64,000 bases of DNA from an uncultured bacterium (GTDB taxonomy: Bacteria > Babelota > Babeliae > Babelales > Babelaceae): contig CAWKFG010000001.1 of NCBI GenBank assembly GCA_963848965.1, positions 160,001 to 224,000 of the forward strand. Direction: 5' to 3'. The translations under genes were made by a program, and so were the position numbers. Under the pieces are notes generated by a model that saw only the letters and a list, made by a program, of their open reading frames with translations, did no database searches and was not told where the DNA came from. Shown one piece after another: positions 40,583-64,000 of the stretch. Within the stretch, counting starts at the first letter, position 1. Each line of letters opens with the position of its first letter.

Positions 40583-41740
40583 TCAAAAGTTGGTTGATTG
40601 AGAATGTTTAGATGTTTGTTGGTGTTGTGAGAGCTGATATCTATAAGTAAAGGCTTTATGGCATTCTTTACAAATATAGGGCTTTTCTTTAGTATGTAAC
40701 CTCGTGTGTGCCTCTAAGCTAGTTTTATTAAGAAAGCCTGTCTTACACCCAGGGTAATTGCAAGGGTAGGGCAGTAGGGACTGGGATTTATACACTTGTC
40801 CATCGAAAACAGTGGACATTTCTTTAAAAGTATATGTGGAACATGGATTTTTCTTTAAAGGATATGTATTAGGTGTATTTGTAGATAATTTTGAATCTTG
40901 GGGATGTAGTTTTTGCTGATGTCTTTGTAATTGTTTTCTATGGCTAAATGAGTCGCCGCATTCTTTACAAACATAAGACTTTGTATCTGTATGGCCGTTT
41001 TTATGATCTTTTAAGCTAGCTTTTTGCATAAAAGATTTGGTACAACTAGGATAATCGCATTTATAAGGCTTTTCACCTGTATGCATGCTCTTATTCAATG
41101 AACCGTTATTATCAATGACTTGTTCGTTATCTGTTTGACCAACGATACCGTTAGTAAGTTTTTCATTTAGGCTGTCCCTATCATCTCGTAGGTCGAACTC
41201 AAATAGTAAGTTACCAGCGTTAGATATGTCTTTTTCTTTTCTGTTACCGAGATCTATGCTAGGGACTTCATCTTCATGAAGAAAAGAATAATGCTTTTTA
41301 AGATCTTCAGATGTTGAAAAAGCAAATGAACATAATTTACAGGTATAAGCGTATGTTTCTTTGGCAGAAAAAAGAGAGTAAATGATAGGAGGAGATAAAG
41401 GTGACACTGCTTCTTTGTTTGAGGTAATGTTAGTACTATCTTGTATATCCCATATTTGTTTATGAGATGAATAAAGAGGTTCATGCGTAACAGGACAATC
41501 ATTTGTATTGTTTAGTTCAAAGCTAAGATCGGGAGTATTTAAGGGTTGGTCAAGATTATCAATACTATTGAGTAAAAAAGAAATACTATTTTTATCTTTA
41601 AAAGAAGTATCTAGTTTATGACGTTTGAGAATATTATATGTGCTAGTATCAGATAATGGTCTTTTAGAAGATCCTTCTTGCATGCACTTAAGAGTACAAG
41701 AGAGAAAAAGTGTTGAAAGAAAGATAATTGCTTTTTTCAT
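40583..41740 (-). CDS. Secreted eukaryote-like C2H2 zinc-finger protein
   Basis: Five C-x2/4-C-x12-H-x3-5-H fingers; HTGEKPY and HTKEKPY linkers; signal ...TLKC-MQ. Confidence 0.92.
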   Translation of the reverse strand: MKKAIIFLSTLFLSCTLKCMQEGSSKRPLSDTSTYNILKRHKLDTSFKDKNSISFLLNSIDNLDQPLNTPDLSFELNNTNDCPVTHEPLYSSHKQIWDIQDSTNITSNKEAVSPLSPPIIYSLFSAKETYAYTCKLCSFAFSTSEDLKKHYSFLHEDEVPSIDLGNRKEKDISNAGNLLFEFDLRDDRDSLNEKLTNGIVGQTDNEQVIDNNGSLNKSMHTGEKPYKCDYPSCTKSFMQKASLKDHKNGHTDTKSYVCKECGDSFSHRKQLQRHQQKLHPQDSKLSTNTPNTYPLKKNPCSTYTFKEMSTVFDGQVYKSQSLLPYPCNYPGCKTGFLNKTSLEAHTRLHTKEKPYICKECHKAFTYRYQLSQHQQTSKHSQSTNF

Positions 41741-42084
41741 AAATCCCCGTAAGCGCGGAAACTGCGTCTTTTAAGACGTAGAGGAGCGCTTGTGATACTA
41801 AGTCGGCAGCAAGAGTAAGTATGAACTTACTCTAGGCTGTACGGCAATCTCCCCTTACGGGGGTAAAGTTAGCCTCGCCAATGTTATAGAGCGGTATGTA
41901 TCAAGAGCACTAGCCTATACCCTCAACTTGTTTAACTCTTGAATTACAGGGCTTGGAACTGGCTTCGCATTCCAAGGTGTGATCTTTAACGCTCCTCTAT
42001 AACGTAGTCCTCTGCGTTCGCTCAGACTTAGGCTGGTCAACGTGAGCTTTTGCAAGCTACGTCCTTTAGGACGTAGTAGTTGAC
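41741..42084 (-). mobile_element. Non-autonomous IS200/IS605-type (IscB/OMEGA) element with no ORF
   Basis: Starts GTCAACTAC; twin subterminal hairpins CTACGTCCTAAAGGACGTAG and CTACGTCTTAAAAGACGCAG; ends TTTCCGCGCTTACGGGGATTT before ATGA; GC-richer than its flanks. Confidence 0.85.
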
Positions 42085-42104
42085 AAAACTCACTTTACTA
42101 CGAG
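41845..42104 (-). ncRNA. omegaRNA (HEARO-like) scaffold with 5' guide
   Basis: GTCAAC...GTTGACCAGCCTAAG...ACTACGTTATAGAG...ACACCTTGGAATGC..GCCAGTTCCAAG...TTAAACA...CTCTATAACATTGGCGAGGC...TTACC. Guide inferred as about 20 nt 5' of 42084; ends approximate. Confidence 0.82.
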
Positions 42105-42324
42105 AGCTATTATTTTTTTATACTATTTATAATATATTAAATTGATCTATTTTTCAAGCTTTGAGACAGGTCGCCTCCTTATACTAGAAGGGATATAAAA
42201 GATTTTTTATGAAGCATAGCAGGGAATAATTACTTATTGCAAAATTATTTAATTCTTTTAGACTTAGGAGCATAAAAGTATTTATTATATAATTTTTTAT
42301 CTTTCCTTATATAGTGAGTTCTTA

Positions 42325-44544
42325 ATGAAAAATACTACCCTTTTTCTCCTTACGTTTTTTCTTTATAGCTTTTACATAAGCTGTATGGAAAAAGAAGCTG
42401 GAGACCAGATAGCTCTGCAGCAGAGCAGTCAGCTATCGCTTATTCAGGCTATTGCATCTGGTGAGGTAAAGAAAGCGTTAGAGTTACTAAGAAGTGATGT
42501 TGACATTAATCAAGTGGATAAGTATGGGAACACTCCTTTAATGGCAGCTGCTTGCAAGGGATATATGCAGCTTATAAAGCTTCTCATAAAAAAGGGAGCC
42601 CATCTTGAAGCTGCTGATAATCGAGGAGCAACAGCTTTAATGTATGCTGTAAGTTATGAAAATAAAGAAGCGGTAAAGGAACTTCTTGCTCACGGTGCGA
42701 ATGTAAGAGCTCAAAGCAAGGAGGGAAATACAGTGCTCTTTGCTGCTCTTTCGCATGAAGACGGTGAAATTGTAAAAGAACTTCTTAAAATAGAACCAAA
42801 AATTGTTGATGAATGTTATGGCTCTCATACACCCCTTACTTTTGCTCTTACAAGAGAAGCTTTATCGATGGCGGAGCTATTAGTAGCGTATGATGCTAAT
42901 GTTAATCTTGCAGAAACTAGTAAAGGATTCAGCCCCTTACGAGTGGCTGTAGATAAAGGATATAGAACATTTGTAGAACGTCTTATAAAAAAGGGGGCCC
43001 TAGTAAACCATCAATGTATTGAAGGAAGAACTGCACTTATAAGTGCAGCAAGTAAAGGATATTTACCTATAGTAAGACTATTGATTAATAATGGGGCCAT
43101 AATAGACCTACAGCCACGAGATGGATGGACTGCTTTAATGGATGCTGCTGAAAATGGACATGAGCATATTGTAGCCGAGCTTTTAAAAAGAGGAGCTAAT
43201 GTTGCTTTATGTAACAATAGAAATGGAGAAACAGCAGTTTTAAGTGCTGTAAAAAAAGGTTACTTAGGTATTGTAGAGCTGCTTATGGAGGCGGGTGCAG
43301 ATATTTATGGTAAGACTAACGATAATTGGACTGCATTGACTCTTGCTTGTTGTAATGGGCATAAGATGCTTGTTGAAAAGCTATTAAAGCTTAAGGTTGA
43401 TCCTTGTGTAGCTGATGATGACTATGGCATGACTGCTTTACATATGGCAATCTGCAATGGTCATACTGATGTTGCTCTTATGCTTATTAAAGCACGAGCA
43501 GGGATTGGCTGTAAAAATAAGAGAGGCGAAACACCTTTAATGTCTGCAGCTGTGGGGGGTAATGAAAAAGTAGTAGAGGCGCTTCTTAGTGAAAAAGTAG
43601 ATCTTAATGAAAAAGATGATGAGGGACTTTCTGCTTTAGAGAAGGCAGCGCGAGTGAAAGAGATGGGAACAGTTGATCAGCTTATTAATGCAGGAGCAGC
43701 TTATAATGAATCATCTTTAGAAAAATTTCTTTTAGAAAAGCTACCAAATCAAAGTCCGGAAAAATCTTCTCTTCCATTTACTTTTAAAAGAGTAGGTGAT
43801 GAGGTTATAATGAGTTCGCCGTTTATAGGAAATTCAACTATATTTACTGGCAAATTGGGAATTACAACTGCAGCGCATCTTATTAAAGAGGGATGTATAG
43901 CAGGTGAAGGTTTTAGCAACTTAGAGGATCCAAAGAGAAAAATAGATTTTCTTATAACGTTACTACTGCAAAATAAGCCTGAGTTGGTGCAAAAGCTACT
44001 TAAGCAAGAAGCACTAGATGTTAATACAAAATCAACAGATGGTAAAACTCTTTTAATGGTAGCAGCTCTTCAGAATCAATGTGAGCTCATGCACATGCTT
44101 ATTGAACAAAAGGCTTGCATTACTACTCAAGATGATAATGGTGATACGGCTCTTACTCTTGCTATTCTTAAAGGCTATTATAGACCAGTTATATTACTTA
44201 TTTCTTCTGGCGCAGATATTACAGAAACGGTACCTTTTTTTTGCATGCTTGTAAAGAAAGGATATCTTGATGTTCTTAATGCACTTATAGAATATGGGGC
44301 ACCTGATACAAGAGGCTACAGCGAGCTTATACATCTTCTTAAAGAAAGAGAACTTTCTTTGCGGTTCGATAGTTGTTTATATTGTAAGGCACTAGCTCCA
44401 GCGTCTACTCGTGCAAAGCAGTGTGGTCGATGCCTATTTGTACGATACTGCTCAGCTACATGTCAAAAAGAAGATTGGCCTACGCATAAACATATATGTT
44501 CTCAACTTAAAGAACTAGTTCAAAAGTTAAGAGCTACTACTTAA
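42325..44544 (+). CDS. Secreted ankyrin-repeat protein with C-terminal MYND zinc finger
   Basis: Many ankyrin repeats; CLYC...CGRC...YCSATCQKEDWPTHKHIC; signal ...YISC-ME. Confidence 0.92.
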   Translation: MKNTTLFLLTFFLYSFYISCMEKEAGDQIALQQSSQLSLIQAIASGEVKKALELLRSDVDINQVDKYGNTPLMAAACKGYMQLIKLLIKKGAHLEAADNRGATALMYAVSYENKEAVKELLAHGANVRAQSKEGNTVLFAALSHEDGEIVKELLKIEPKIVDECYGSHTPLTFALTREALSMAELLVAYDANVNLAETSKGFSPLRVAVDKGYRTFVERLIKKGALVNHQCIEGRTALISAASKGYLPIVRLLINNGAIIDLQPRDGWTALMDAAENGHEHIVAELLKRGANVALCNNRNGETAVLSAVKKGYLGIVELLMEAGADIYGKTNDNWTALTLACCNGHKMLVEKLLKLKVDPCVADDDYGMTALHMAICNGHTDVALMLIKARAGIGCKNKRGETPLMSAAVGGNEKVVEALLSEKVDLNEKDDEGLSALEKAARVKEMGTVDQLINAGAAYNESSLEKFLLEKLPNQSPEKSSLPFTFKRVGDEVIMSSPFIGNSTIFTGKLGITTAAHLIKEGCIAGEGFSNLEDPKRKIDFLITLLLQNKPELVQKLLKQEALDVNTKSTDGKTLLMVAALQNQCELMHMLIEQKACITTQDDNGDTALTLAILKGYYRPVILLISSGADITETVPFFCMLVKKGYLDVLNALIEYGAPDTRGYSELIHLLKERELSLRFDSCLYCKALAPASTRAKQCGRCLFVRYCSATCQKEDWPTHKHICSQLKELVQKLRATT

Positions 44545-44554
44545 CATGCATAAT

Positions 44555-45346
44555 TTATTGACTTATAACAGGCGCTTTTACTGCAGCATTACGTAAAAGT
44601 TTAACAACTTCGGTATTGCCTTTCTCTTGAGCAAGAGCAAGAGCAGTTTTGCCAGATGGATCTGTTAAAGTAATATCGGCTCCTTTTGCTAGTAATAATG
44701 ATACTGCTTCTGGAAAATGGTGTATTGCAAAAGTTAAAGGAGTATATTGACTATAGCGTTGGTTAACATCTGCTCGTTGGTCAAGTAAATATTTTACTAT
44801 ATCTAAGTGATGCTGGTGCATTGCAGCGTAAAGAGGAGGAATGAGAGATGAAAAGTGCCCATTAATATCTGCACTCTGACTCAAAAGCTCTTTGATGGTA
44901 TTAAGATTGCCTTCATAGGCAGCTGCCATAAGTTTGCGATCTTGTTGTGCTCTTTTTTGTTGCTCATCAAGCCATGCTTTGGCATTAAGAGCTTGTGCTA
45001 TTTGTTCTCTTGTATGGTAGGTGATTAATGGTCCAGGTTGAAATGTTGGCGGAGCTCCAGGTGGTGGTGTTTGTGGCTCAGATGTATAAGGAAACTTTGT
45101 ATAAAGAGTTTCTATAAGGACCTTCATAAAATCAGCGTTGCTTTGAGGAAGTGGAAGTTTGTGTAGTCTTTTTAGAGCTTCATTTAATGTTTTTGCTGAA
45201 GTTATAATTTTTTCAACTCCTTGCCACATGCTGTGATGCGTAACTTCTTTAATAGGACTATCTTGAGCACTAGGTTCCATTGCTTGTGTATTAACACTAG
45301 TGATTAATGTATATAACGGTAAAATGAATATATATTTTTTTAACAT
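44555..45346 (-). CDS. Secreted ankyrin-repeat protein
   Basis: Start MLKKY (SD GAGG); signal ...NTQA-ME; Pro-rich insert PQTPPPGAPPTFQPGP; 4 ankyrin repeats. Confidence 0.85.
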   Translation of the reverse strand: MLKKYIFILPLYTLITSVNTQAMEPSAQDSPIKEVTHHSMWQGVEKIITSAKTLNEALKRLHKLPLPQSNADFMKVLIETLYTKFPYTSEPQTPPPGAPPTFQPGPLITYHTREQIAQALNAKAWLDEQQKRAQQDRKLMAAAYEGNLNTIKELLSQSADINGHFSSLIPPLYAAMHQHHLDIVKYLLDQRADVNQRYSQYTPLTFAIHHFPEAVSLLLAKGADITLTDPSGKTALALAQEKGNTEVVKLLRNAAVKAPVISQ

Positions 45347-45457
45347 AACAACCTCTTGATTTATTTCTATTATTAACATAATAATAAGGCTTTTTATTTC
45401 ATAATGTCAAGAGCTTAACAGAGAATAGTCTTTTAGAGCGGTGCTATAAGAAAATTA

Positions 45458-45486
45458 AAGGCTCTTTGTTCAAAACAAAGAGCCTT
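45458..45486 (-). terminator. Intrinsic terminator
   Basis: AAGGCTCTTTGTT-caa-AACAAAGAGCCTT immediately after the ABC permease stop. Confidence 0.75.
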
Positions 45487-45489
45487 ATG

Positions 45490-46299: not shown

Positions 46300-46396
46300 G
46301 AGCGTCTATAAAGCTCCTCCATTTTAATGGTGGTACATGCTATTGCTACTGTAGCATAGCTTTTAGAAGAAAAGTAAAGAAATCTCTGTAAGAACT

Positions 46397-47341: not shown

Positions 47342-47467
47342 TATTGTTCCTATATAAAGGTATCTCTAATTAAAAATATGCCAAAGCTTTGCAGCAATGG
47401 CAAGAATTTAAAAAATATGGCAGAATAAAAAAGCACCCCCGTTAAAATTTTATGATTAAGGTTACTT

Positions 47468-48388
47468 ATGTTTTTACTTATCATTATGAATCTTTCCTAT
47501 GCGCTCTTATTCCCGTTAAGTAAAATTGCGCTTGATTATTCTTCACCTATTTTCTTAACCGGTTTTCGTATGACATTAGCCGGTATTCTTGTATTACTTT
47601 ACCAGTATTTTTTTAGGCGGCAACAGTTTACTTTACCTCGCCATCACTTTTGGCCCTTTTTTCTTTCATCATTTTTGGGCATCTATGTAACAAATGTGTT
47701 GGATTTTTGGGGCTTTACCTATATGACAGCAACAAAAAGTTGCTTTCTGTATAACCTCTATCCTTTTGCTGCAGCATTTTTTGCATGGTTCTATTTTTCT
47801 GAGCGTTTAAGCACAAGAAAATGGCTTGGTCTTGGATGCGGATTTTTAGGAGCCCTACCAATGATCTTTTCAAGTCAGCAAGTTGAATCAATACCCGTTT
47901 TTGGTGGCTCTCTTCCTCTTCCTGAACTTGCTGTTATTGTTGCTATTATTGCAAGTACCTATGGATGTGTATTTACCCGGCAGCTTGTGTGTCAAGAAGG
48001 CTATGATTCGGTGATGGTTAATGGAAGTATTATGCTCATGGGTGGTATTATGGCTCTTGCCCACTCTTTGCTTGTTGAACAATGGCATCCTTTACCAATT
48101 AGTAATGTGAAGGGCTTCTTCTTAAGCTCATTAGGTATGATGCTTGTTTCAAATGTTATAGGCAATACTGCTTATGTTGAACTTTTACGTCGCTATTCTA
48201 TGACATTCTTATCATTTACTGCCTTTAGTGAACCACTGCTAACAGCTATTTTTGACTGGCTATTCTTTAACATTAAAGTAGGTTACACATTTTATCTTTC
48301 TGTTGCAGTCGTATTTGTAGGACTCTACCTTTTTTATAAGGAGGAGCTTGAACTTAAAGGACATAAAGATCCTGTAGATGCCGTTTGA
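47468..48388 (+). CDS. DMT/EamA-family transporter
   Basis: About ten TM segments in two EamA repeats; FRMTLAG, FSERL..RKWLG, EP. Confidence 0.88.
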   Translation: MFLLIIMNLSYALLFPLSKIALDYSSPIFLTGFRMTLAGILVLLYQYFFRRQQFTLPRHHFWPFFLSSFLGIYVTNVLDFWGFTYMTATKSCFLYNLYPFAAAFFAWFYFSERLSTRKWLGLGCGFLGALPMIFSSQQVESIPVFGGSLPLPELAVIVAIIASTYGCVFTRQLVCQEGYDSVMVNGSIMLMGGIMALAHSLLVEQWHPLPISNVKGFFLSSLGMMLVSNVIGNTAYVELLRRYSMTFLSFTAFSEPLLTAIFDWLFFNIKVGYTFYLSVAVVFVGLYLFYKEELELKGHKDPVDAV

Positions 48389-49243
48389 GTTTCTTGTAGT
48401 TCCGTTTTTCTAAAAGTATGCCATGCATGCCATTCTTTTGAGCGCTTTCTATGTTTTCTCGTTGATCATCAATAAGGATACAATCGGTAGGTGTAACCTT
48501 ATATTTTTTAATAAAATGTTCATAAATACTTTTATGCGGCTTGAGAGTGCCAATATCGCCAGAGATAAGTATATTATCTGGATCAACAAATTGCAGTATC
48601 TTTTGAAATCCTCTTGAAAGAGAAAGGTCTTTAAAAGAATCAGGATCCCAATTTGAAAGAATGTAAAGCTTGTGACGTGGGTTGCCATGTTCATCAGATT
48701 GCAGTGCACATTCTCGTAAAATTTTTAGTGCTTTTCTTATAGGGCGCATATGTTTTGCAAGTGTTTGAGGATTAAACATAGCCTCTAACGTCTTTTTTAC
48801 AAGGCGCTTTTGACGAGCACTAATAAAGAAGCCTGCTTGATCATATTCTTCAATACGCTGTGCAACTTTATGGCATATTTTTGCACCACTTTCTTTGCCT
48901 GTAAGCCAATCGCACATAATGGTAGGGAGTACTCTTCCTTCAGATGTGGCCAAAGAACATAGTCTCTCCTTTTTGTGGCTCTGCAAGTGAATCTAAGACT
49001 AGCAAAAACGATGTTTTTAATGTGTAGAGGATTTTTCCAATCAAGAAGGGGATAGAGAAGAAAATCTTTCCAGCCAATTTCTGAGGCGAAACTAAAAATA
49101 TTTGTAGAAACAAGGGTATTGCCAAGATCCCAAATAATTACTTTAGGACGGGAAGACACTGCCTGAGAAGGTAAATTACTAAGAATCATAGGGCACATCA
49201 CAATGCTGAGGGATAAAGCTTTCGTTATCATATAAAAAGTCAA
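48354..49243 (-). pseudogene. Exported HAD hydrolase, paralog of 9831-10685, split over three frames
   Basis: IIWDLGNTL...DWKNP in one frame, LDSLAEPQKGE in a second, LPTIMCDW...LSNWD...KP...IDDQ in a third; indels near 49001 and 48963. Could be sequencing error. Confidence 0.78.
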
Positions 49244-49984: not shown

Positions 49985-50014
49985 GCACCTCTTTGCAGAC
50001 AGTATATTCGTTGT

Positions 50015-50852: not shown

Positions 50853-52434
50853 TTATCTAAGTATTTTGCTCATACACTCTAGTATGAGCTTTTGTGTTTC
50901 TTGCTTAAAAGCAAGACCGACTAGTGTTATATGTTTTTTTGTAAGAAGATATCGCTCATAGTATTTTTGTTCTTCTATTTGACGTAATGCAGTTTGAGCA
51001 TTAACGTTAAATTTAAGCTCAAAGATATAAACATGTGTCTTTGTGATGAGAACTAGATCTATTCTGCCTTTGTCTGTACTAACTTCTGATTGGATATCTA
51101 GGCCGAGAAGTTTGCCAATGATCTGAAAAAGTGAATGATAACAACGCTCTTGAGCGATGTGTAACTGATAGGGAATGTGTGCTAAGAGACTTTGCAAAAG
51201 TTCACAAAAGAGAGAAATATCATTTTCTTTAAGGGCGTATACTAATTGTGAGGTTGCTTTTTCTACGGTAGTAACGTTTGTATTTGATAAAGCAGCTAAG
51301 AGGTACTTTTTGAAAAGATTCGTGTACTTCTTTATTGGGGTAGCCTAACTTATACTTAGATGTAACTGAATCATAATTAATTATAGTAAGGTACCCTGTT
51401 TGAAAGAGTAATGTAATAGGTGGTATATCTTCAAGATCAACGGTTCCTAAGCCTGTCGTAGTAAATTCTGCATATTCAAGGCCTTCAAGTGAGGTATAGT
51501 GTTTTTTTAGAAATTGTATAAGAAAAAATGGTGTTCCTGACTCAAACCAATAATTTTTAAGCTCTTTTTTATCAAGATAGTAGAGAATTGAATAAGGATT
51601 ATATACTTTTGCTTCATGGCTTGAAAATCGGTAGCCATGATACCAGATTTTCATAATTTCTCGTATATTTTCTGATGTAGTACTATGAACTTCTGCTATT
51701 TCAGCAATATTATTAGAAAAATATGTCTCAAGTTCTTCTTGAGTATATCCTAAAAGTGATGCAGCAATTGGATCAAGTGTGAGATCATCAAGATTGTTAA
51801 GACCAGAAAAAATTGAGGTTTTTGAGAATTTGCTTACTCCTGTTATAAAAATAGCACGTAGATGTGGATCAAGTCCTTTTAAAACACCGTAAAAACTTTT
51901 TAGGATTTCACGCATTTTCTTTGCTACTTCAATATCATGGAGATGGCTCAAGAGCGGATAATCATATTCGTCAATAAGAATGGCTACTTTATTGCGTTCA
52001 GAAAGTTTTCTAATAAGTGAAGTAAACATATCTTCTAGGATTGTAGCTTCAAGAGTGATGGTATAGTTTTGAGCGATAGTTTCTAATGTATATCGTAAGC
52101 TTGCTTCAAGATGTTCTGGTGTACGATGTGCTATAGTTGAAAAATCAAGATGAATTACGGGGTGCTCTGCCCAATCATGATTTGAAGTATAAAGCCAAAG
52201 TCCTTTGAAGAGCTCTTTGTTACCTGAAAAAAATTCTTTTAATGTTGAGATAAGCAGCGTTTTGCCAAATCGTCGGGGCCTAGAAAGAAAATAGTACCGC
52301 TTTCCTTTGCTAAATAGCTTATAAATAAAGTGCGTTTTATCTACATAGAGATAATTACCTTGGACCATTGTGTGAAAATCACTAACATCGGTAGGTAAAT
52401 ACTTTACAGATTTTGTATTGTTTGGCATATTCAC
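50853..52434 (-). pseudogene. AAA-ATPase-like + PD-(D/E)XK nuclease protein, frameshifted
   Basis: YVDKT...RPRRFGKTL...IDEYD...TGVSKF; C-terminal GRIDL...IFELK in another frame; extra A in an A5 run near 51310. Could be sequencing error. Confidence 0.85.
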
Positions 52435-52694: not shown

Positions 52695-55304
52695 ATGAGA
52701 ACAAAAGTTTTAATAGTGTTTATAAGTATCTTCTGTTGTACTCCTCTTTTAACATATGGCATGAAAAGAAAAAGAGGAAAAAGTGAGCAGGTAAAGCATA
52801 GGTCTAAAAAAAGAAAAGCTTCTTCTCAAGAGTTATTGCTTATTGAGGCTGCTACTAAGGGTGATTTAGCTACGGTAAATAAACTACTTGCTTTAAATAG
52901 CGAACACACGTCTTCAATTGATATAAATGCTAAGGATAGCGACGGTTTTACTGCTTTGATGAAAGCTGCACGGCATAGTCGTATAGAAGTGGTAAAGGTT
53001 CTATTAGCAGCAAAAGCTAGTGTTAATAAGAAGAACGCAAAAGGTTCATCAGCATTACTCTATGCGGCTATAAGTAACAATCCTACTATAATAGACCTTC
53101 TTATTGAAGCAGGTGCTCACATTAACTATAAAAATAAAGACGAATGGACGCCTTTAATATATGCAGTTTATTATAACAACAAGGAGGCAGTTGAAAAACT
53201 ATTAAAAGCTAAAGCTTCCATTGACCTGACAGATTCAACTGAGATGACTGCTTTTATGTGGGCAGCAAAAAGAGGTCATAAGGAGCTTTTATATAAGTTG
53301 GTCAATGACCGTGATGATGTCAATAAAAAAGACCGTAATGGCGATACGGCCTTGCATCATGTAGCTCGTGCGGGCTTAGCGCATATGATTTCAGAACTTT
53401 TAAGCTGTGGCGCAGACATTGAAGCTAAAAATAATACTGGTGATACTCCGTTAATGGCTGCAGTAAAGGTAAACAAGCAGGAAGTTGTTCGTGAATTACT
53501 TGAAGAAGATGCAGATTTTGATGCTGTAGATAATAAGGGACATTCACTTTTATTTGTTGCTGCTCAATATGGGTTTACGACCATTGCGCAAGAGTTGCTA
53601 GAAATTGGAGCTGTAATCGATACAAAGGACTGTGAGGGTCATACACCTTTAATCATTGCTTCTTCTTGTGGACAAAAAGATATAGTTAAACTATTGCTAG
53701 ATGTTAGTGCTCAAAAAAATTTAACAGATAGTTCTAAAGCTACTGCAGCATACTGGGCTGCTTATCAGGGCCATAGTGAAATTGTCGCTCTTCTTGAGGT
53801 AAAGGATAATAATCCTAACATATTACTTGCTGCTGCAACGAATAATCATAAAGATTTGGTAAACAAGCTTTTAGAAAGAGGAACTGATATTAATGTGCAG
53901 GATGCAAAAGGCGATACTGCACTTATAGCTGCTTCAACAAAAGGAAATAGAGAATTTGTTCATGAATTAATAAGCAAAGGTGCCTCAATTGATATACAAA
54001 ATAAGAAAGGATCGACTGCTCTTTTTTGTTCTATTATGAATGGACATAAAGATACTGTTCAACTTCTATTACAGCATGGTGCGACTGTTAATATGCAGGA
54101 CCGAGAAAAAGCTACTCCTTTAATATATGCAGTTTATTATGGTAATGAGGAAATAACACAGATGCTTCTTCAAGCAGGTGCTGATATTGCAGTAAGGGAT
54201 ATTTATAATCGTTCAGCACTTTCTTATGCTATAGAAGAACAACATTCTAAAGTAGCTCAATTGTTTTTAGCCAAAGAACATGCTATTGCAGGGGATGCTG
54301 AACTGAGCACCTTGCTGTCAACTGCAGCGGTAATGGGTAACCAAGAACTTGTAATGATGCTTTTAGAAAAGGGCTTGCCAATACATGCGGTAAGTGAAGG
54401 TGGATCAACACTGTTAATGAAAGCAGTAAAAGGAAAGAACAGTGCTATTGTGGAAAAATTTCTCTCTTTAGGAGTACCTGTAAATACAAGAGACCAGAGA
54501 GGTAATACAGCCTTGGTATATGCTGCTATAAGCGGATCACCAGAAGTTTTTAGTCTTATTGCTAGTCGGGATGCTGATGCGAGCTCGCGACAAGGAGCTC
54601 TTACGAAAATTATAGAAAGTGGAAACTTCCAATTGCTCAGTAGGTATCTTCAAGTGTATCAATGTACAGATCTTGCTGCACGTTCTTTAGTACCAATTTT
54701 TGTTATAATGGATAAGCTTTCTTTTGAGGAGCTGACTGCTCCTAATAAAGAAGAACGACTTTTTAAGAAGAGGGAAAAAGAACATTATAATGAGCTTGTT
54801 TTACTCTGTAAGCTTGCTTTGCTTCCTCTCATAAGTGCTTATGCTCATGCACCAGAAAAAGTCGTTACAGAAGTACAAGATGGTATTTTTACGCGAGATG
54901 AATTTCATCAAACTTCACTTATACGAGCTAGTATATTTGGACATTTTTCTATAGTAGAGCAGTTACTTGCATGTAACTTACCATCAGACTATGTTAATGC
55001 TCAAGATAAGTTAGGGCGTACTGCATTGATGTACGCAGTACTTTATGGGTATGGAGACATTGTTCGGCTTCTGCTTCCTTATTGCAAAAAAGGTATTAAT
55101 CTTACTGATAACCAAGGAAATAGTGCTTTGTATTATGCTGCATCTCAAGGTAATGATAGAATAATAGAAGAGCTGTGGGATAAAGGAGCACGTCTTTCTA
55201 TTAAGGCTATTAAAGCGGTAGCAGAACAGGGCTCAGCTAAGGTGGCTACAATACTTCTTATTCTTATGAAAACAGGCACTAATCTTTTTGGTGGCAAAAG
55301 GTAA
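52695..55304 (+). CDS. Secreted ankyrin-repeat protein with bipartite NLS
   Basis: Signal ...LTYG-MKRKRGKSEQVKHRSKKRK; about 20 ankyrin repeats. Confidence 0.92.
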   Translation: MRTKVLIVFISIFCCTPLLTYGMKRKRGKSEQVKHRSKKRKASSQELLLIEAATKGDLATVNKLLALNSEHTSSIDINAKDSDGFTALMKAARHSRIEVVKVLLAAKASVNKKNAKGSSALLYAAISNNPTIIDLLIEAGAHINYKNKDEWTPLIYAVYYNNKEAVEKLLKAKASIDLTDSTEMTAFMWAAKRGHKELLYKLVNDRDDVNKKDRNGDTALHHVARAGLAHMISELLSCGADIEAKNNTGDTPLMAAVKVNKQEVVRELLEEDADFDAVDNKGHSLLFVAAQYGFTTIAQELLEIGAVIDTKDCEGHTPLIIASSCGQKDIVKLLLDVSAQKNLTDSSKATAAYWAAYQGHSEIVALLEVKDNNPNILLAAATNNHKDLVNKLLERGTDINVQDAKGDTALIAASTKGNREFVHELISKGASIDIQNKKGSTALFCSIMNGHKDTVQLLLQHGATVNMQDREKATPLIYAVYYGNEEITQMLLQAGADIAVRDIYNRSALSYAIEEQHSKVAQLFLAKEHAIAGDAELSTLLSTAAVMGNQELVMMLLEKGLPIHAVSEGGSTLLMKAVKGKNSAIVEKFLSLGVPVNTRDQRGNTALVYAAISGSPEVFSLIASRDADASSRQGALTKIIESGNFQLLSRYLQVYQCTDLAARSLVPIFVIMDKLSFEELTAPNKEERLFKKREKEHYNELVLLCKLALLPLISAYAHAPEKVVTEVQDGIFTRDEFHQTSLIRASIFGHFSIVEQLLACNLPSDYVNAQDKLGRTALMYAVLYGYGDIVRLLLPYCKKGINLTDNQGNSALYYAASQGNDRIIEELWDKGARLSIKAIKAVAEQGSAKVATILLILMKTGTNLFGGKR

Positions 55305-55396
55305 TCTGTCTATGCAGCAGCTTTCATTTGGAAGGTTTTTCTAAAGATGCTATGCTTTATCATAGCAAAAGGTGTAGTATAAGTGAGTGGCTTTTT

Positions 55397-56520
55397 ATGT
55401 TAAATAAACACAAGGTTCTTCAAGAACTACAGACGATAGTTCCACAGCTTTTCTTTGCTACTGGCCAAGAAAGGGAGATCGCATATAAAATATGGCGCTG
55501 GTTACTTGACCATCCAGAGCAAGCAGAGCCACTTACAGTGTTCTGTGTCTCCCTGGCAGGTTCCTCAATGGTTAGAACAGTTGAGTACTGCAGACATCTA
55601 TTAAAACAGGAAGACATGGCTACAGTGTTACTGCAGTTGATGGCTCACAAATATACCCCGATAGGCATCAAGGAATTGGCTGTTATCTTCTTAATATTGG
55701 CAGAGTAACGCTTACTTATGATGGCCATCTTTCTGGTATGCATACAGATTCGATTCCTTCTGTCTATGCTTTGCAGGAAAATGGTTCGTGGAATGACCTT
55801 TCTCCAGAGAAAATTAATTGTCAAAGAAGTGAGCTTGAGTTGCAAGTAGGGCTTAAGGTAAGTACAGAAGTTACTCAAAAGCGACCATTTCCACATCTTT
55901 TTTTGTGTGATGGTTCTTTAATTTTTTGGCATCTTGATTCGCAAGACGATGTTACTAAAGAGCGCTTTTTGCAAAGCTCTTTATCCCTTTTAGATGATTT
56001 TTATAAAAAGCGGCTCCTTATTGCAGGCTTTATAAGCTTGCCTAAAAGTAAAGAGCTTGTGAACATTGTGCGTATGGCAGTAGATAAGAATATAGTCTCT
56101 TTTGACACTAAGCCCACGTTTGAACATATTGTTGATAGTGATGTTATTTTCCCTTTCTTGCCTACGTATACTCGATCGGCACTCTTTGCTCATTGTTCAT
56201 CTATTACACAGCGCTATCCAGAGCATCTGCGTCCCCATTTTATATATGTAAATATAAACCAAGAGGTTGTACGCATTGAAGTTCCAGCGTGGATTGCGCA
56301 TGACCAAGAAGCTCTTACAACAACGCTTGAAATAGCTCTTGATCAATGTATAAAAGGGCATGGCTATCCTGTAGCGCTGTCAGAAGCCCATGAACAGGCT
56401 GTAGTTAAAAATATTGATAGAGAATTCTTTTTTCAGATGCTCTATAAATTAAGCTCAGATCATAAATATCCCATAAAACCTTCACAAAAAAGCCTTAAAA
56501 AGAAGTTTGTTAGCATTTAA
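55397..56520 (+). pseudogene. NurA-domain nuclease split by two indels
   Basis: AVDGSQIYPDRH, LFLCDGSL, RIEVPAW, GHGYPVALSEAHEQAVV; N-terminus MLNKHK in another frame; indels near 55530 and 55593. Could be sequencing error. Confidence 0.8.
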
Positions 56521-56615: not shown

Positions 56616-56643
56616 TTGACAAATATAAAATAAAATATATAAT
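56616..56643 (+). promoter_or_regulatory. Sigma70-type promoter
   Basis: TTGACA-16nt-TATAAT upstream of the ankyrin gene. Confidence 0.65.
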
Positions 56644-56686
56644 TTATAACATAATAAATAATAATATATAGGATATTTTGATTGAT

Positions 56687-57961
56687 ATGTATAGAATTAT
56701 TGTAACTATGCTCTTATTAGCGTGTAGTAGCCTGTCTTTAACCATGAAGCGGGATAACAGCTGTGAAGGTGGAACGGCTCTGAAATTGAGAAAATCAGAA
56801 ACTGGTGAGCGCATTGCAGGTATTTCAACTACTACTCAAGACGGGCTCTATAGAGCATTAGAATTAGTAGTGCTCAATAATCAAGTAAACTCTTTAAAAA
56901 AGCTTCTTGAACGTGAAGTTGAGCAGAAAATTCTTAATAAATGTCTTGTTTTTGCCTGTCAAAGAGGTTTTAATGATATAGTATCAGTACTACTAGCTGC
57001 AGGAGCAGACCCAAACACATGTACTGAAAAAACAAGAATTCCTGTACTTCTGTTGGCTGCACAAGGTGGCCATACGCAGGTAGTATCATTACTTCTTGGC
57101 GCAGGTGCAGATAAGGATGCGACTAATGAGTATGAAGATACTGCGCTGCTAGTTGCAACAGAAAGCGGTTATAGTGACCTTGTTGCTCTTTTGATTGAAG
57201 CAAAAGCTTGCGTTGATAAGCAAAATTCACTCTATGATACTGCTCTTATGGTAGCTACAGCATGTGGTTACAAAGATATTGTTAAAATGCTCATTAGAGC
57301 AGGAGCTAATTGTGATCTCCGTAACTTCTGTGGGGAAACGGCTCTTACGCTTGCTGCAATAAATGAGCGTACAGAAATAGCAGCGTTGCTTGTTGGTGCA
57401 GGTGCAGATACTACAAGTGCTGATAATCAAGGAAAAATAGCATTACAGCATGCACGGGATAATGGTTGCAAAGATGTTATCCATCTTCTTACTTTGTGTA
57501 GAGATCTTGAAATGCAAGCGTATATAAGGAATCCTCAAGCATACTTCTCTTCTTCAAGTGTACATTATACTATACTTTTGTGGGCTAGCATGTGTGGACA
57601 CACTTTTATAATTGCACAACTCCTTGAGCTGCCTCATATAAAAGAGGTAGTAAGTGGGCAAGATGAACGTGGTTATACACCGCTTATGTATGCTCTTCTT
57701 TATGGGCACTATGATAGTGCATTGCTTCTTATCAAAGCAAGCTCTCAAGAAGGTATAAACCTTTGTAATAAGCAAGGTAAAAATGCGCTCTTTTATGCTA
57801 CAATAAAAGGGAATTTGAGGCTTGTTGGTGCACTTTTAGAAGCAGGAGCAGAAGCTTCCTATAATGAGGTCAAGCTTGCAGCCCATCAAAAATACTTACA
57901 AGTTATGGGACGTCTTCTTTTTGTAGTACATGAGGCTCAATTACCGGCACTTTTTAAGTAG
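56687..57961 (+). CDS. Secreted ankyrin-repeat protein
   Basis: Signal ...SLSLT-MKR...KLRK; ankyrin repeats. Confidence 0.9.
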   Translation: MYRIIVTMLLLACSSLSLTMKRDNSCEGGTALKLRKSETGERIAGISTTTQDGLYRALELVVLNNQVNSLKKLLEREVEQKILNKCLVFACQRGFNDIVSVLLAAGADPNTCTEKTRIPVLLLAAQGGHTQVVSLLLGAGADKDATNEYEDTALLVATESGYSDLVALLIEAKACVDKQNSLYDTALMVATACGYKDIVKMLIRAGANCDLRNFCGETALTLAAINERTEIAALLVGAGADTTSADNQGKIALQHARDNGCKDVIHLLTLCRDLEMQAYIRNPQAYFSSSSVHYTILLWASMCGHTFIIAQLLELPHIKEVVSGQDERGYTPLMYALLYGHYDSALLLIKASSQEGINLCNKQGKNALFYATIKGNLRLVGALLEAGAEASYNEVKLAAHQKYLQVMGRLLFVVHEAQLPALFK

Positions 57962-59027: not shown

Positions 59028-59084
59028 AAATATCCTCTAGAGAGCGCAAAACTAGGCCTCTACGTGTATGCTTTTTGCTAACAC

Positions 59085-60215
59085 TTACCCTAGAAACTTT
59101 TTAAAGAAACTTTTTTTATCCTCTGGGTTACCAGTATCTGTACCAGTGAGGTGAGCATACTCTTTAAGTACTTGTTCAGCTTCGGCAGAAGTCTTTTTAG
59201 GAATAATACACTTTGTTATAACTATTAAATTTCCTCGACCTTTGCCTCGTACGCGGTGGAACCCTTTGCCTGTGACAGTAATTCGAGCATCTATTTGAGT
59301 ACCTTTAGGGATTTTTACTGCTTCTTGAGTACCATCAATGTTCTCTATCTCAATCTGAGCACCTAAAACAAGTTGTGGATAAGAAAGTTGAACAGTATAT
59401 TCAAGATCATCGTCTACTCGCTTAAAGACAGAGTGTGGCATAACATGTACTCGTAAATAAAGATCTCCAGCAGGTCCTCCAAAGATACCGGCATCACCTT
59501 TACCTGCAACACGAAGTTCAGCACCATCATAAATACCTTTTGGTATAGTAATACTTACAGTATCATATTGCTGTATGCGAGATTGCCCTTTGCATGTAGG
59601 GCATGGGTTAGTAATAATATACCCTTCACCATGGCAATGAGGACATGTTTGGCTGTACATGAAGATACCATGACGATAACCAATTTGACCTGCACCTTGG
59701 CATTCTGGACATTGCTGTACAGTTGCTCCTTTAGCCATACCTTTGCCATTACAGGTTTCACATGAAACAAAATGATAGATACGGACCTCTTTTGTCGTTC
59801 CGGTAAATGCTTCTTCTAAAGAGAGTGAGACATCTTTGACAATATCATGGCCACGTTTAGGAGTCGGTTCTGCTTTGCGTGAACGTCGCTTTTGTGCTTG
59901 TCCGCCACCAAAAATCTCACCAAATATATCTTCAAAGTTAGTAAAGATATCATCCATACTCATGCCTTGACCAAAGCCGCCCATGCTAGGGCCTGCATGA
60001 CCAAATTGATCATATTGCTTTCTTTTTTCTGCATTTGAAAGCACTTCATATGCTTCAGCAGCTTCTTTAAACTTGTCTTCAGCTTCTTTATTATCAGGAT
60101 TTCTATCAGGATGGTACTTCATTGCTAGTTTTCTATAGGCTGCCTTAATCTCATCTTGAGTAGCAGTCTTAGAAACGCCTAGCACTTCGTAGTAATCTCG
60201 TTTATTATTGTTCAT
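59085..60215 (-). CDS. dnaJ: Molecular chaperone DnaJ
   Basis: J-domain HPD, G/F-rich region, four CxxCxGxG repeats. Confidence 0.97.
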
Positions 60216-60489
60216 ATGTGTTATGTGCAAAGATATGTTAATATTGTGTTTACCTTAAAGTATACCATATTTTAAAAAAAAGGCTATTGTAGCATTTCTC
60301 TTGCCAAAGCACTTTGATTATCTGTTTTTTACCTGTAGTGCACCCTCAATAAAAGATTTGCGTGTTTAGAAAAATGAGTGTATACGATCTAATTCCAATA
60401 AATATTTCTAGTTGAGTATTATAGATATCCTGCTATACTCATTAGATGATAGGCTATTGGATAGTCAATGTTATTATTGAGGTTAAGTA

Positions 60490-62868
60490 ATGAAAAAATA
60501 TGTAGTGCTTATTATGGCTCTCTTGTGTACAGGTCTTACTGAGGCTATGAAACGGCAGGAATATAAAGAAACTCAGGTTAAAAAGACCTCAAATAAGAAG
60601 ATGAAAAGTGAGCATACGTTATCTGAAACTGACGTAGCGCTTATGGTAGCTGCAGGTAAAGGAGATTTAGCTCAAGTTACTACGCTTCTTGCAGCAGGAG
60701 CTTATGTTAATGCTCGTGATATAGGTGGCGCTACTCCGTTACTGCATGCTGTTATCAGTAAAAATAGTGACGTTATAACGCAATCTACTATTATAAAGGC
60801 TCTTTTGAATGCTGGAGCAGATCCATCAATTAAAGATTTTTATGGCCATACGGCTCTTGAATTGGCAGCGCTTAGTAGACAATATCTGTTTGCCTTGGAG
60901 CTCCTGAGATTCCATGCTCCTGGTGGAGATGATTTTTTTCAAGTAGAAGGAAAAGATGGTTTTATAGCCGACGGGGTGTTTTGTCAAGCCCTTATCCTTA
61001 TGGCTAAGGATTTTCCTTTCTCAGCTCTTAAGAAACATATTGAAGAAGCTGTTCAGGTATTTAAACGTGATTCACAAGGAAATAAGAGACTAGCTAATTA
61101 TCTAGCGCTTGCTTTTACGCAAGTGACTAAAGATGCTTTTTTCTATCTCATTAAGATGGGAGCTCAAATTCCAGCTGAGTGGTTGTTACAGCAATCTACT
61201 AAAGAGAAGTTAACAAATTTCTTTTTAAGTGCAGCTTGTGACGGTAAGGTAAAAGTGTTAGAAAGTTGTGTTAAGGCTGGTATTCCCATTAACTATGTAC
61301 ACCTAGATACAGGATATACAGCGCTTATGTTTGCAGCAGAAAATGGTCATGCTGAAGCCGTTAAAGCTCTTATTAAGCTAGGAGCAGATATTACGTTACA
61401 TAATAATAAAGACCATGACGTGCTTTATGAAACAATTGATGCGCTCTTTAGTACTGAAGTTACCGGACGTATAGGTCATCATAAAGAAGTACTTCAGGTA
61501 CTTGTAAAAGCAGGAGCTGTATTTAGATCTTCAGAACGAGAAGGTGTAACTGCTGAACAGAAAAAGCGTAATGATACTATGACTAATGCTATTTTACAGG
61601 GAGATAAAGCTACTATTAAGAGACTTTTAGATGAAGGATTTGCTGATGATGAATCACTTTTAAGTTTTACTGCTTTTGGAGCAGGTTCTGGTCAGTGTGA
61701 ACCATTACTCCTTGCATGCCTTATGGGTAATGCTGACATAGTACAAGAGCTTTTGACTCATAGAGGAAACTTTGATTTTGAAGAAGATCTGTATTCATTT
61801 GATGAGCTCATAGATATTTTAGCAGCAAATGGTAATATAGAGGTAATTGAGCTTCTACTTAACTGGTATAATCAAAACAATGCAGAGAACATAACTATTT
61901 CAGAAGGAGCATTATACTATGCTCTTAGAAATAAGCATATTGAGCTTGTTAAAAAGTTGGCACCAAACTGCGCATGGGGTTCAAGACTGAATATACGAGA
62001 ACTTGCTATTCTTACAAAGCAAAAGAGTATTGTAAGGCAGCTTATTGAAGCAGGAGTGGATGTATGTCAACAATATAACTTCCATTACAGTGTTATAGCT
62101 AAAAATTTAGAAATAGTAGCGCTCCTTACCAAAGATGCTCTTGTTTGCAACTTACTTAACAAATTTTATGATGTAGACGAATTAACAGACACGCTAACAA
62201 ATAGTAAAGTATTCAAAAATGTCTTTTTAGGCGAAGGTTCTTTTGCTCCATTGCAACTTGCTCACCGAGTTCGTTCACCAGAACTTGTACACTTCTTGCA
62301 AGCATGTACTGATGAAAATTTGAAAGGCTATCTTCAAAATCCAGAAGCATATGCTAAAGGTTACCTAGCACAATGCTCTTCTTTACAAACAATAGTACAA
62401 AATAAATATGGCCAAACAGTACTTATGTGGGCATGTATATTTAATCATAAGAGTATAGTACAGCTTTTACTTAATCAGCTTCCTGTATGTTTGCATGCTG
62501 TTGATAGTTATGGAAGAACAGCACTTGTATATGCTATACAGTGTGGAAACACTGAGATAGTCTCTCTCTTGTTAGATGCTTACGAAAGAGAGAATAGTAA
62601 AAAAGCTTATGAAGATAAGCGAGTAAGCAGCATAAACAAGTTTGATAGAGAAGGTAATAATGCTCTTTGTTATGCGGTAATAAAGGGAGATCTTAGCTTC
62701 ATAGTACGCCTCTTAAGTGCCGGTGCTTGTCCTACAGCTCAAGCAATTAAACTTGCTGCAGAGCATGGTCACAAAGAATTAGCACTAAAACTTTTGGCTC
62801 TAATGAGTGAATATGCGCGAATTGCAAATCTTCCTATGAAAGGCCAAGAATTTCCTAAACTTTATTAA
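60490..62868 (+). CDS. Secreted ankyrin-repeat protein with NLS-like N-terminus
   Basis: Signal ...LTEA-MKRQEYKETQVKKTSNKKMK; ankyrin repeats. Confidence 0.9.
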   Translation: MKKYVVLIMALLCTGLTEAMKRQEYKETQVKKTSNKKMKSEHTLSETDVALMVAAGKGDLAQVTTLLAAGAYVNARDIGGATPLLHAVISKNSDVITQSTIIKALLNAGADPSIKDFYGHTALELAALSRQYLFALELLRFHAPGGDDFFQVEGKDGFIADGVFCQALILMAKDFPFSALKKHIEEAVQVFKRDSQGNKRLANYLALAFTQVTKDAFFYLIKMGAQIPAEWLLQQSTKEKLTNFFLSAACDGKVKVLESCVKAGIPINYVHLDTGYTALMFAAENGHAEAVKALIKLGADITLHNNKDHDVLYETIDALFSTEVTGRIGHHKEVLQVLVKAGAVFRSSEREGVTAEQKKRNDTMTNAILQGDKATIKRLLDEGFADDESLLSFTAFGAGSGQCEPLLLACLMGNADIVQELLTHRGNFDFEEDLYSFDELIDILAANGNIEVIELLLNWYNQNNAENITISEGALYYALRNKHIELVKKLAPNCAWGSRLNIRELAILTKQKSIVRQLIEAGVDVCQQYNFHYSVIAKNLEIVALLTKDALVCNLLNKFYDVDELTDTLTNSKVFKNVFLGEGSFAPLQLAHRVRSPELVHFLQACTDENLKGYLQNPEAYAKGYLAQCSSLQTIVQNKYGQTVLMWACIFNHKSIVQLLLNQLPVCLHAVDSYGRTALVYAIQCGNTEIVSLLLDAYERENSKKAYEDKRVSSINKFDREGNNALCYAVIKGDLSFIVRLLSAGACPTAQAIKLAAEHGHKELALKLLALMSEYARIANLPMKGQEFPKLY

Positions 62869-63223
62869 ATCTTAGATAAACAGTACGCGCCTGCTCAGAG
62901 AGTAGACGTGTCATTTTAATGGCCATTGGTGACCTTGTGTATCATAAAGACACGAATCCATTGCCATTCAAGTGCACGAAAGTAATATAAGAAGCTTCAT
63001 TTATGTATTATTGCATAAAGATAACATAGGCTTGAGTGATGTCATGGGCAGTGATTTCTAAAGGCTATGGTAGGATGTGCTTGGATAGTATCTTAAGATA
63101 AAGAGTATGGTAGGTTATAAGGAGTAAAATATAAAAAATATTTTTAATTGAAATTTTTTATATATCTGATATACTGTAATGCATGATTATATATCGGATA
63201 TTAAAGTTATTATAAGGATTAGT

Positions 63224-64000
63224 ATGAAAATAGTAGTTTTGTTTCTTTTGGTTGTACCTTTTAGCAGCCTTGTAGTGGCTATGAAAGATAAAGCTCACTT
63301 TGAAGAGCCTTCTGGCAAAAGGGTTAAGATTGAGCAACAGATAACGAATAAAGATAGAGCGCTTATGGCAGCGGCAGGTAAAGCAGATTTAAAAAAAGTA
63401 ACTGATTTGCTTCAAGCAGGAGCAAATGTTCTTGCTCGTGATGAATTTAGGGGTACTGCGCTTCTTAGTGCTGCTTATGCTGGTAATACTGCTGTTATAC
63501 AAGCTCTCATTAATGCAGGGGCTGATGTTAATGCTAAAGATATCTATGGGCATACTCCTTTAGAAGTGGCTGCAAGAAATAAGCATAATGATGCAGCCCT
63601 TGAACTTCTTAAAGCTCAAGCAAAGGGAAACTATGACTTTTTTCAGATAGAGTTTAGAGATGGTTTTGCAGCAGATAGGATCTTTGAAAGAGCTCTTTAT
63701 AGTGGAGATTCTCCTCATCATTCAACCGACTATATGCAACTTAAAAGTGCTTTAAAAAAGCATATTCAAGATATCGTTCAGAATTTTAAACAAGGTTCTG
63801 TTTGTAAAGAGGTTTTATCGCGCTATTTAGCTGTTACTATTCGTAGTAAGCATTGGTGGGCGACTTTATATTTGCTTGAAATGGGAGCTATCATTCCTAA
63901 TGAATATCTGTTAAACAATGATAGTAAAGCTTATCTTGAAAATTGTTTTTTACATGCGGCTACTCGTGGTAAAGCAAAAGCTTTAGAGAGCCTGATCAAA
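63224..64000 (+). CDS. Secreted ankyrin-repeat protein, paralog of 60490-62868, runs off the right edge
   Basis: Not in the ORF track. MKIVVLFLLVVPFSSLVVA-MKDKAHFEEPSGKRVK...ALMAAAGKADL...YGHTPLE...DFFQIEFRDGFAAD. Confidence 0.88.
   Translation, partial: MKIVVLFLLVVPFSSLVVAMKDKAHFEEPSGKRVKIEQQITNKDRALMAAAGKADLKKVTDLLQAGANVLARDEFRGTALLSAAYAGNTAVIQALINAGADVNAKDIYGHTPLEVAARNKHNDAALELLKAQAKGNYDFFQIEFRDGFAADRIFERALYSGDSPHHSTDYMQLKSALKKHIQDIVQNFKQGSVCKEVLSRYLAVTIRSKHWWATLYLLEMGAIIPNEYLLNNDSKAYLENCFLHAATRGKAKALESLIK

Follow-up and report, generated by a model that had tools for sequence, protein, structure and literature searches.

Nuclear localisation signal-like basic clusters behind predicted signal peptides in ankyrin-repeat and zinc-finger proteins of a putative Dependentiae bacterium

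Introduction

Bacterial proteins that act in the nucleus of the host cell (nucleomodulins) have been described from several genera. According to the available text of PMC8401217, SAP11 of the phytoplasma AY-WB carries a signal peptide (residues 1-31) and a bipartite nuclear localisation signal (NLS; residues 40-57), and enters the nucleus in an importin-alpha-dependent manner; this bacterium is wall-less, and Sec export therefore delivers the protein straight into the host cytoplasm. Ankyrin-repeat effectors acting in the host nucleus include AnkA of Anaplasma, Ank13 of Orientia, and RomA and AnkH of Legionella, which, in the accounts available, depend on type IV or type I secretion and not on a Sec signal peptide of the kind proposed here. 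In this study we analysed a 64,000-nucleotide stretch of bacterial DNA (positions 160,001 to 224,000 of contig CAWKFG010000001.1, assembly GCA_963848965.1; hereafter the window), in which five genes for ankyrin-repeat or C2H2 zinc-finger proteins carry NLS-like basic clusters directly behind a segment resembling a signal peptide.

We treat the organism, on the basis of sequence similarity, as a Babeliales-like bacterium of the Dependentiae (TM6), a protist-dependent lineage whose cultured members are described as parasites of protists (PMC6561590, PMC4378268, PMC4776705, as far as their available text goes). In the accounts seen of Babela massiliensis and Chromulinavorax destructans, which belong to this lineage, proteins combining a signal peptide with ankyrin repeats are presumed to be secreted and to serve host interaction; a signal peptide is reported for 78% of the Chromulinavorax ankyrin proteins (PMC6561590). 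The type II system is given as the only secretion system of B. massiliensis (PMC4378268) and as conserved in TM6 genomes (PMC4776705, PMC4378268), and outer-membrane vesicles have also been suggested for Chromulinavorax (PMC6561590). In the main text available, supplements aside, the word "nuclear" does not occur in PMC4378268 or PMC4776705, nor does the string "nuclear locali" in PMC6561590, and a literature search combining Dependentiae with nuclear localization returned nothing relevant (one unrelated review).

Basic clusters behind a signal peptide-like segment

The open reading frame (ORF) lists of the window yielded 54 non-nested ORF proteins, the set to which all counts for the window refer. 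Sixteen of them begin with a short basic n-region, a hydrophobic core, a small residue and a conserved Met (the signal peptide-then-Met, or SP-Met, layout), and five of these 16 carry the clusters considered here. An earlier note on this DNA had placed these clusters at the predicted mature N-terminus. All five read in the protein sequence as given there, and each lies directly behind the signal peptide-like segment, the mature N-terminus and cleavage before the Met being assigned by the -1/-3 rule and hydropathy only.

The first protein (385 aa; 40583-41740, minus strand) contains five eukaryote-type C2H2 fingers; its hydrophobic N-terminus is encoded at 41684-41740 and the conserved Met at 41681-41683, and the motif KR-x11-KRHK (41615-41665, minus strand) follows ...LKC-MQEGSS. 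The other four are ankyrin-repeat proteins encoded on the plus strand, in which the Met is followed by Lys (the MK family). The longest (869 aa; 52695-55304; Pfam Ank_2, E 1.4e-162; hydrophobic N-terminus 52695-52760, Met 52761-52763) contains the strongest bipartite NLS-like motif, KRKR-x10-KKRK (52764-52817, plus strand, after ...TYG-M), which was checked in the DNA and both clusters of which also fit the monopartite K(K/R)x(K/R). A 424-aa protein (56687-57961; hydrophobic N-terminus 56687-56743, Met 56744-56746), whose ATG lies within a TTG-started ORF beginning at 56678, has KR-x10-KLRK (56747-56794, plus strand, after ...SLT-M). In a 792-aa protein (P0001; 60490-62868; hydrophobic N-terminus 60490-60546, Met 60547-60549) the motif is KR-x13-KKMK (60550-60606, plus strand, after ...TEA-M), which may alternatively be read as KR-x12-NKKMK. 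The last gene begins at 63224, an ATG within the ORF starting at 63179, and runs off the window at 64000 (hydrophobic N-terminus 63224-63280, Met 63281-63283); the corresponding database entry, P0002, is 805 aa long when the upstream ATG at 63179 is taken as the start. The motif of this protein, PSGKRVK (63308-63328, plus strand, after ...VVA-MKDKAHFEE), is monopartite and fits what we take to be the consensus P/R-x-x-K-R-(not D/E)-K/R.

Frequency of the motif

A bipartite motif was scored where two adjacent basic residues were followed, after a spacer of 10-12 residues, by five residues of which at least three were basic, all within 32 residues of the Met. It was found in four of the 16 SP-Met proteins, namely those beginning at 40583, 52695, 56687 and (in the reading with a 12-residue spacer) 60490, and not in that at 63224. 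Elsewhere in the 54 proteins, 0.39% of 16,019 windows of 32 residues contain the same pattern, and none of the 38 non-SP-Met proteins has it within its first 60 residues. Composition-preserving shuffling of each N-terminus (20,000 times) gave a mean of 0.52 matches, with P(>=4) = 0.0001, and the excess holds at windows of 25, 32 and 40 residues. When the MK family is counted once, two of 13 N-termini retain the pattern, for which shuffling at the three lengths gives P = 0.0125, 0.030 and 0.024. Taken singly, the proteins at 56687 and 40583 give shuffle P values of 0.010 and 0.029, respectively.

The stricter consensus, KR-x10-12 followed by K(K/R)(K/R) or K(K/R)x(K/R), is present in two of the 16 SP-Met proteins (40583 and 52695), which are unrelated to each other. 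Two or more strict matches arose in at most 0.13% of shuffles before collapsing of paralogues and in none of 4,000 after it, at each of the three window lengths. The observation is confirmed, modestly beyond chance.

The MK ankyrin family

The four motif-bearing MK proteins are paralogues, having in common the N-terminal layout and a C-terminal module of approximately 140 residues; those at 60490 and 63224 are 57% identical throughout. In an alignment of the first 60 residues, M23, K24 and K39 (the last belonging to the second cluster) do not vary, the remainder of the linker is 26-45% identical, and the KKMK core of the 60490 protein is aligned with KRVK of its neighbour at 63224. An AlphaFold2 model of the 56687 protein, computed with its three paralogues as the alignment, reached a mean pLDDT of 80.6; it contains a helix at residues 2-22, a stretch with pLDDT below 50 at residues 15-42, and the helices of the ankyrin repeats from residue 51. 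The low-confidence stretch holds the whole motif; the model thus suggests that the motif is placed, like linear import signals, in a flexible linker.

The earlier note had proposed that an MK start marks mostly nuclear ankyrin effectors, and that proteins starting with ME lack the NLS. The second statement is correct for the window, none of the eight ME proteins having the motif. The first did not survive: the four MK proteins with a motif are one family, in which the K of "MK" is merely the first residue of the basic cluster, and the fifth MK protein (23464) has no motif and is not an ankyrin protein, showing only a weak, sub-threshold metallo-beta-lactamase-like match. The distinction between MK and ME is therefore a family effect, unfit as a genome-wide predictor.

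The C2H2 zinc-finger protein

The fingers of the 40583-41740 protein are recognised by the Pfam profile zf-C2H2 with E 6.2e-18 and a score of 64.6 bits (cut-off 25.2). All five conform to C-x2-4-C-x12-H-x3-5-H and are joined by TGEKP-type linkers (HTGEKPY and HTKEKPY can be read directly), and their closest relatives of solved structure in the Protein Data Bank (PDB), ZNF568, PRDM9, WT1 and CTCF, are DNA-binding transcription-factor fingers. The N-terminal part of approximately 200 residues had no match in the homologue search, and an atlas look-up with the whole protein returned generic C2H2 clusters only, most of them without taxa. A single-sequence AlphaFold2 model (mean pLDDT 36.9) was too poor and was not used.

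Two metagenomic proteins, P0355 (401 aa) and P0401 (412 aa), each combine an SP-Met N-terminus with seven C2H2 fingers, and secreted eukaryote-type zinc-finger proteins may be a recurring theme in the lineage. In P0355 a KKSR stands ten residues behind the Met and a KKRK immediately ahead of the fingers, while P0401 has neither; since the clusters sit elsewhere or are absent, what recurs is the putative secreted zinc-finger protein and not the place of the basic cluster.

The conserved Met and the charge behind it

In the 16 SP-Met proteins residue -1 is Ala (six), Gly, Cys or Ser (three each) or Thr (one), and residue -3 is a permitted one throughout. The highest Kyte-Doolittle mean over 10 residues near the N-terminus reaches 1.5 or more in every one of them and at least 2.0 in 14. 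The conserved Met is followed by Glu in eight, Lys in five, Gln in two and Val in one. Most of the genes have a Shine-Dalgarno-like GGAG, GAGG or AGGA before the upstream ATG and not before the conserved Met, from which we conclude that translation includes the hydrophobic segment. P0316, the public gene call for the zinc-finger protein, has 366 aa against the 385 of the ORF: it begins at the conserved Met and drops the 19-residue hydrophobic N-terminus.

The layout was also recognised in 12 ORFs of three related loci (L001-L003) and, by eye, among homologues of the unrelated 6048-7142 family, where 11 of the best 35 have it; several homologues of that family have uncleaved-looking anchors. 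Because it recurs in homologues and related loci, it is a habit of the lineage and not a quirk of the window, and a Met at position +1 looks like a lineage-wide habit of exported proteins, as far as sequence can indicate export. Further examples in the window are the proteins at 982, 2599, 7142 (minus strand), 15934, 31379, 42325 and 59027 (minus strand), and others were seen in L001-L003 and among P0123-P0154, the Met being mostly followed by E, D, Q or N. The parts available of the Babela and Chromulinavorax papers contain no mention of a conserved Met after the signal peptide.

The counts of K+R and D+E over the first 32 residues of the mature part are 11/3 in the 52695 protein, 8/5 in that at 60490, 7/4 at 40583, 7/5 at 63224 and 6/4 at 56687. 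The net charge of the first nine, counted by eye, is +4 in the 52695 protein and between -1 and +1 in the other four. All eight ME proteins have an acidic residue right after the Met.

Gene content of the window

The 54 ORF proteins include, by Pfam, 13 ankyrin-repeat proteins, and one each with leucine-rich repeats (LRR), WD40 repeats and C2H2 fingers. Housekeeping genes (SufBCD/S, DnaJ, ABC transporters) are intermingled with these eukaryote-like genes, the G+C content is 32-38%, and Lys makes up 7.4% of the 18,642 protein residues. Among the matches listed for SufB (26232-27593), 120 have 70-100% identity, and all five that carry an organism name (72-80% identity) are assigned to Candidatus Dependentiae, Babeliales or Babeliaceae. 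A tRNA scan of the window found none.

Other genes may also encode eukaryote-like or host-directed proteins. The candidates are a Macro-domain protein with a signal peptide-like N-terminus (4122-4778, minus strand; Pfam E 5e-34) and a 793-aa SP-Met protein with a WD40 propeller (15934-18315, plus strand). A 739-aa SP-Met ankyrin protein (42325-44544, plus strand) has at its C-terminus a MYND zinc finger (Pfam E 9.6e-11), a domain of protein interaction in eukaryotes, and carries no NLS-like motif over its full length. Small SP-Met ankyrin proteins are encoded at 39694-40488 and 44555-45379 (both minus strand), clear paralogues by eye. An LPxELLSxI-like string resembling the core of an F-box was seen by eye in the 39694-40488 protein and in another of this type (982-2466, plus strand); Pfam reported no F-box in either (E up to 0.001 and up to 0.01, respectively). 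Two ankyrin genes, 11634-12746 and 12743-13543 (plus strand), overlap by four bases, and their products, unlike the other ankyrin proteins of the window, have no hydrophobic N-terminus.

Several ORFs appear to be interrupted. The overlapping ORFs 48797-49243 and 48354-48986 (minus strand) resemble the N- and C-terminal parts of a HAD-like protein encoded at 9831-10685 (50% identity over 38 residues and 36% over 200), and are either a pseudogene, a paralogue interrupted by a frameshift, or the product of a sequencing error. At 50853-52434 (minus strand) an AAA-ATPase_like ORF (PF09820, 401 aa) is followed on the same strand by a separate 114-aa ORF, and the two may be parts of a single gene that a stop or a frameshift divides. 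A NurA-domain ORF (55738-56520, plus strand) lacks a match to the first 54 of the 254 positions of the Pfam profile and is preceded on the same strand by a 126-aa ORF, so that 55328-56520 may likewise be a split gene.

Discussion

The reading that we tentatively favour, and consider plausible if somewhat short of an even chance, is that the five genes encode exported, eukaryote-like candidate nucleomodulins of a Dependentiae bacterium living in or on a protist, and that these would be secreted by the Sec and type II pathways and imported through their NLS-like clusters. Signal-peptide cleavage, secretion, delivery to the host cytosol, importin binding and nuclear localisation are the steps that we infer. 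A Sec-type signal peptide would be removed just ahead of the conserved Met, leaving a flexible linker of 15-35 residues with classical NLS-like basic clusters, followed by the folded cargo. After release from the bacterium, possibly by type II secretion as in cultured relatives, importin-alpha/beta in the host cytosol would read the basic clusters and bring the protein into the nucleus, where, as a nucleomodulin, it would bind protein through its ankyrin arrays or DNA through its zinc fingers. The predicted cargo (ankyrin arrays and, in one protein, five C2H2 fingers of the transcription-factor type) is of a kind suited to work in the nucleus. At 366 to approximately 850 residues, the mature proteins are too large to pass nuclear pores by free diffusion. 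The best candidates are the 52695 ankyrin protein and the C2H2 protein. The bolder proposal that Dependentiae send a Sec/type II-secreted C2H2 transcription-factor mimic together with a giant ankyrin family to the host nucleus, by classical NLSs placed behind a "+1 Met" cleavage site, appears rather unlikely to us.

A number of findings weigh against nuclear import by these clusters. The bipartite excess is real but rests on two independent events, because four of the five proteins are one family; only two independent lineages carry the motif. The classical bipartite consensus as the earlier note gave it, KR-x10-12-K(K/R)x(K/R), fits the 40583 and 52695 proteins and is missed by three of the five, owing to KLRK (56687), a 13-residue spacer (60490) or a purely monopartite motif (63224). 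Composition alone yields the pattern in 35% of shuffles of the 52695 N-terminus. Set against shuffled N-termini, a comparison that the note had named, the bipartite pattern is in excess (P 0.0125-0.03 after collapsing of paralogues), whereas basic clusters of any kind are not (P 0.18-0.30, not significant). Nor is the motif a general companion of the layout. Of the 25 SP-Met N-termini collected from outside the window, from relatives' loci and proteins (12 in L001-L003 and 13 among protein matches, at least two being counted twice), none has the bipartite motif, and a lone K(K/R)x(K/R) is present in two; P0355 and P0401 lack it at the position that it occupies in the window proteins; and six of the 10 SP-Met ankyrin proteins of the window itself are without it. 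A fixed position of the motif behind the SP-Met segment is therefore not supported, and the note's modular design of signal peptide, Met, NLS and cargo should be dropped, together with its rule that MK marks nuclear effectors.

Conservation and export raise further objections to the nuclear reading. A homologue search with the zinc-finger protein gave matches to the finger domain only, mostly in animal zinc-finger proteins, and no orthologue; a word-based search with the 60490 protein returned P0001 itself, the neighbouring paralogue and generic ankyrin proteins (best 23% identity), again with no orthologue. None of the 36 pattern matches to this protein in a genome collection, which does not include the genome of the window, encodes a relative. 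No secretion-system genes were found within the 64-kb window. In E. coli a neutral or acidic early mature region is preferred, and positive charge there hinders Sec export. A positive cluster behind a hydrophobic segment runs, moreover, against the positive-inside rule, by which positive charge after a hydrophobic stretch keeps that flank cytoplasmic (PMC9360617, available text). Known effectors also reach the nucleus by other means: in the sources, as far as available, the predicted NLS of a SAP11-like protein of 'Ca. P. mali' is dispensable for nuclear entry (PMC8401217), Orientia Ank13 enters via RaDAR (PMC8406279) and AnkA via importin-beta (PMC9204287), without a classical NLS, and the fungal effector MoHTR2 has a non-classical His-His signal and binds none of six rice importins tested (PMC12488382).

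The alternative that survives best, doubtful in our view but to be taken seriously, is that the motifs have no targeting function. They would have arisen as a by-product of Lys-rich linkers encoded by A-rich, low-complexity stretches, the genome being AT-rich, and would have been fixed twice: in the ancestor of the MK family and, by chance, in the zinc-finger protein. The low G+C content and the Lys content of the window agree with this, as do the purine-rich A and G runs that encode the 52695 motif, and the ease with which shuffling recreates it; paralogy accounts for four of the five cases, with paralogues collapsed, basic clusters of any kind show no significant excess, and no orthologues were found that might show conservation. 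Against a composition effect, the bipartite excess survives collapsing, the strict form occurs in two unrelated proteins and in none of the 4,000 collapsed shuffles, and none of the eight ME-type linkers of the same genome has the pattern. Furthermore, the basic tetrad is kept among paralogues that are only 26-45% identical in the linker region.

We regard it as unlikely that the basic cluster is instead a determinant of topology or membrane association, either flanking an uncleaved anchor according to the positive-inside rule or forming a polybasic patch by which the protein could bind to the host's nucleolus, acidic lipids or nucleic acid. The rule applies chiefly to the 52695 protein, whose 11 basic and three acidic residues among the first 32 of the mature part face an n-region with only two basic residues; several homologues in the 6048-7142 family have uncleaved-looking anchors, and residues 2-22 of the 56687 model form one long helix. 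All 16 SP-Met proteins have, on the other side, the small -1 and permitted -3 residues that signal peptidase I needs, and cores of signal-peptide length, 17-22 residues before the Met. Acidic residues interspersed among the basic ones keep the first nine mature residues near neutral in all of the five proteins but that at 52695, and ankyrin or C2H2 cargo kept in the bacterial cytoplasm would have no evident target. It is very unlikely that the conserved Met serves as start codon, be it the true one or an alternative, and that the products stay in the bacterial cytoplasm and use their basic N-termini in some role there, for although the gene call P0316 begins at that Met, all 16 frames are open for 17-24 codons upstream to an ATG and encode an n-region and a hydrophobic core, the Shine-Dalgarno-like motifs precede that ATG, the gene calls for the 60490, 63179 and 6048 proteins take in the hydrophobic segment, and the layout recurs in homologues and related genomes.

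The interpretation of the five proteins as candidate nucleomodulins is, as a whole, partly supported: the motifs, their position and excess, the paralogy, the cargo domains, the lineage and one low-confidence linker have been observed here. If the bolder proposal above is true, these would be the first nucleomodulins proposed for the phylum Dependentiae, and the export of a eukaryote-type zinc-finger DNA binder by a bacterium would be unusual. Members of the phylum are found widely but have hardly been cultured, and a short, testable list of likely nucleus-directed effectors, one of which resembles a transcription factor, would offer a way into the control that Dependentiae exert over their protist hosts.

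Comparison with known systems

The linear order proposed here, a Sec signal peptide, an NLS a few residues on and then the cargo, is that of SAP11, which is also produced by an intracellular bacterium. SAP11 differs in being small, whereas the window proteins are large (366 to approximately 850 residues), carry ankyrin or zinc-finger cargo, belong to a bacterium with two membranes that would need a further export step, and are known here from sequence. The known ankyrin nucleomodulins show no sequence kinship with the window proteins beyond generic ankyrin repeats, the best foreign match being 23% identical.

The preference for Met at +1 may be loosely likened to the Q-rule described for signal peptidase I substrates of Bacteroidetes (PMC5837995, PMC10653852, available text), in that a lineage-specific residue is preferred at this position. 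There the residue is Gln, which becomes pyroglutamate, whereas it is Met in the SP-Met proteins, and the likeness bears on the mature N-terminus and not on the NLS.

According to the available text of PMC13311002, an in-silico survey found no proteins that pass both its NLS criteria and SignalP in several ordinary pathogens, among them Klebsiella pneumoniae KP1 and Acinetobacter baumannii ATCC17978. The nearest functional analogues of the 40583-41740 protein are MoHTR1 and MoHTR2 of Magnaporthe oryzae, in which a signal peptide and an N-terminal NLS precede C2H2 cargo, and which reprogram host transcription (PMC12488382, available text). These proteins are fungal and much smaller (110 aa in the case of MoHTR2), and their likeness to the window protein is one of design. 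The principle is not new, since the order of signal peptide and then NLS is known from phytoplasmas and from fungal and oomycete effectors; what is new is the lineage and the zinc-finger cargo.

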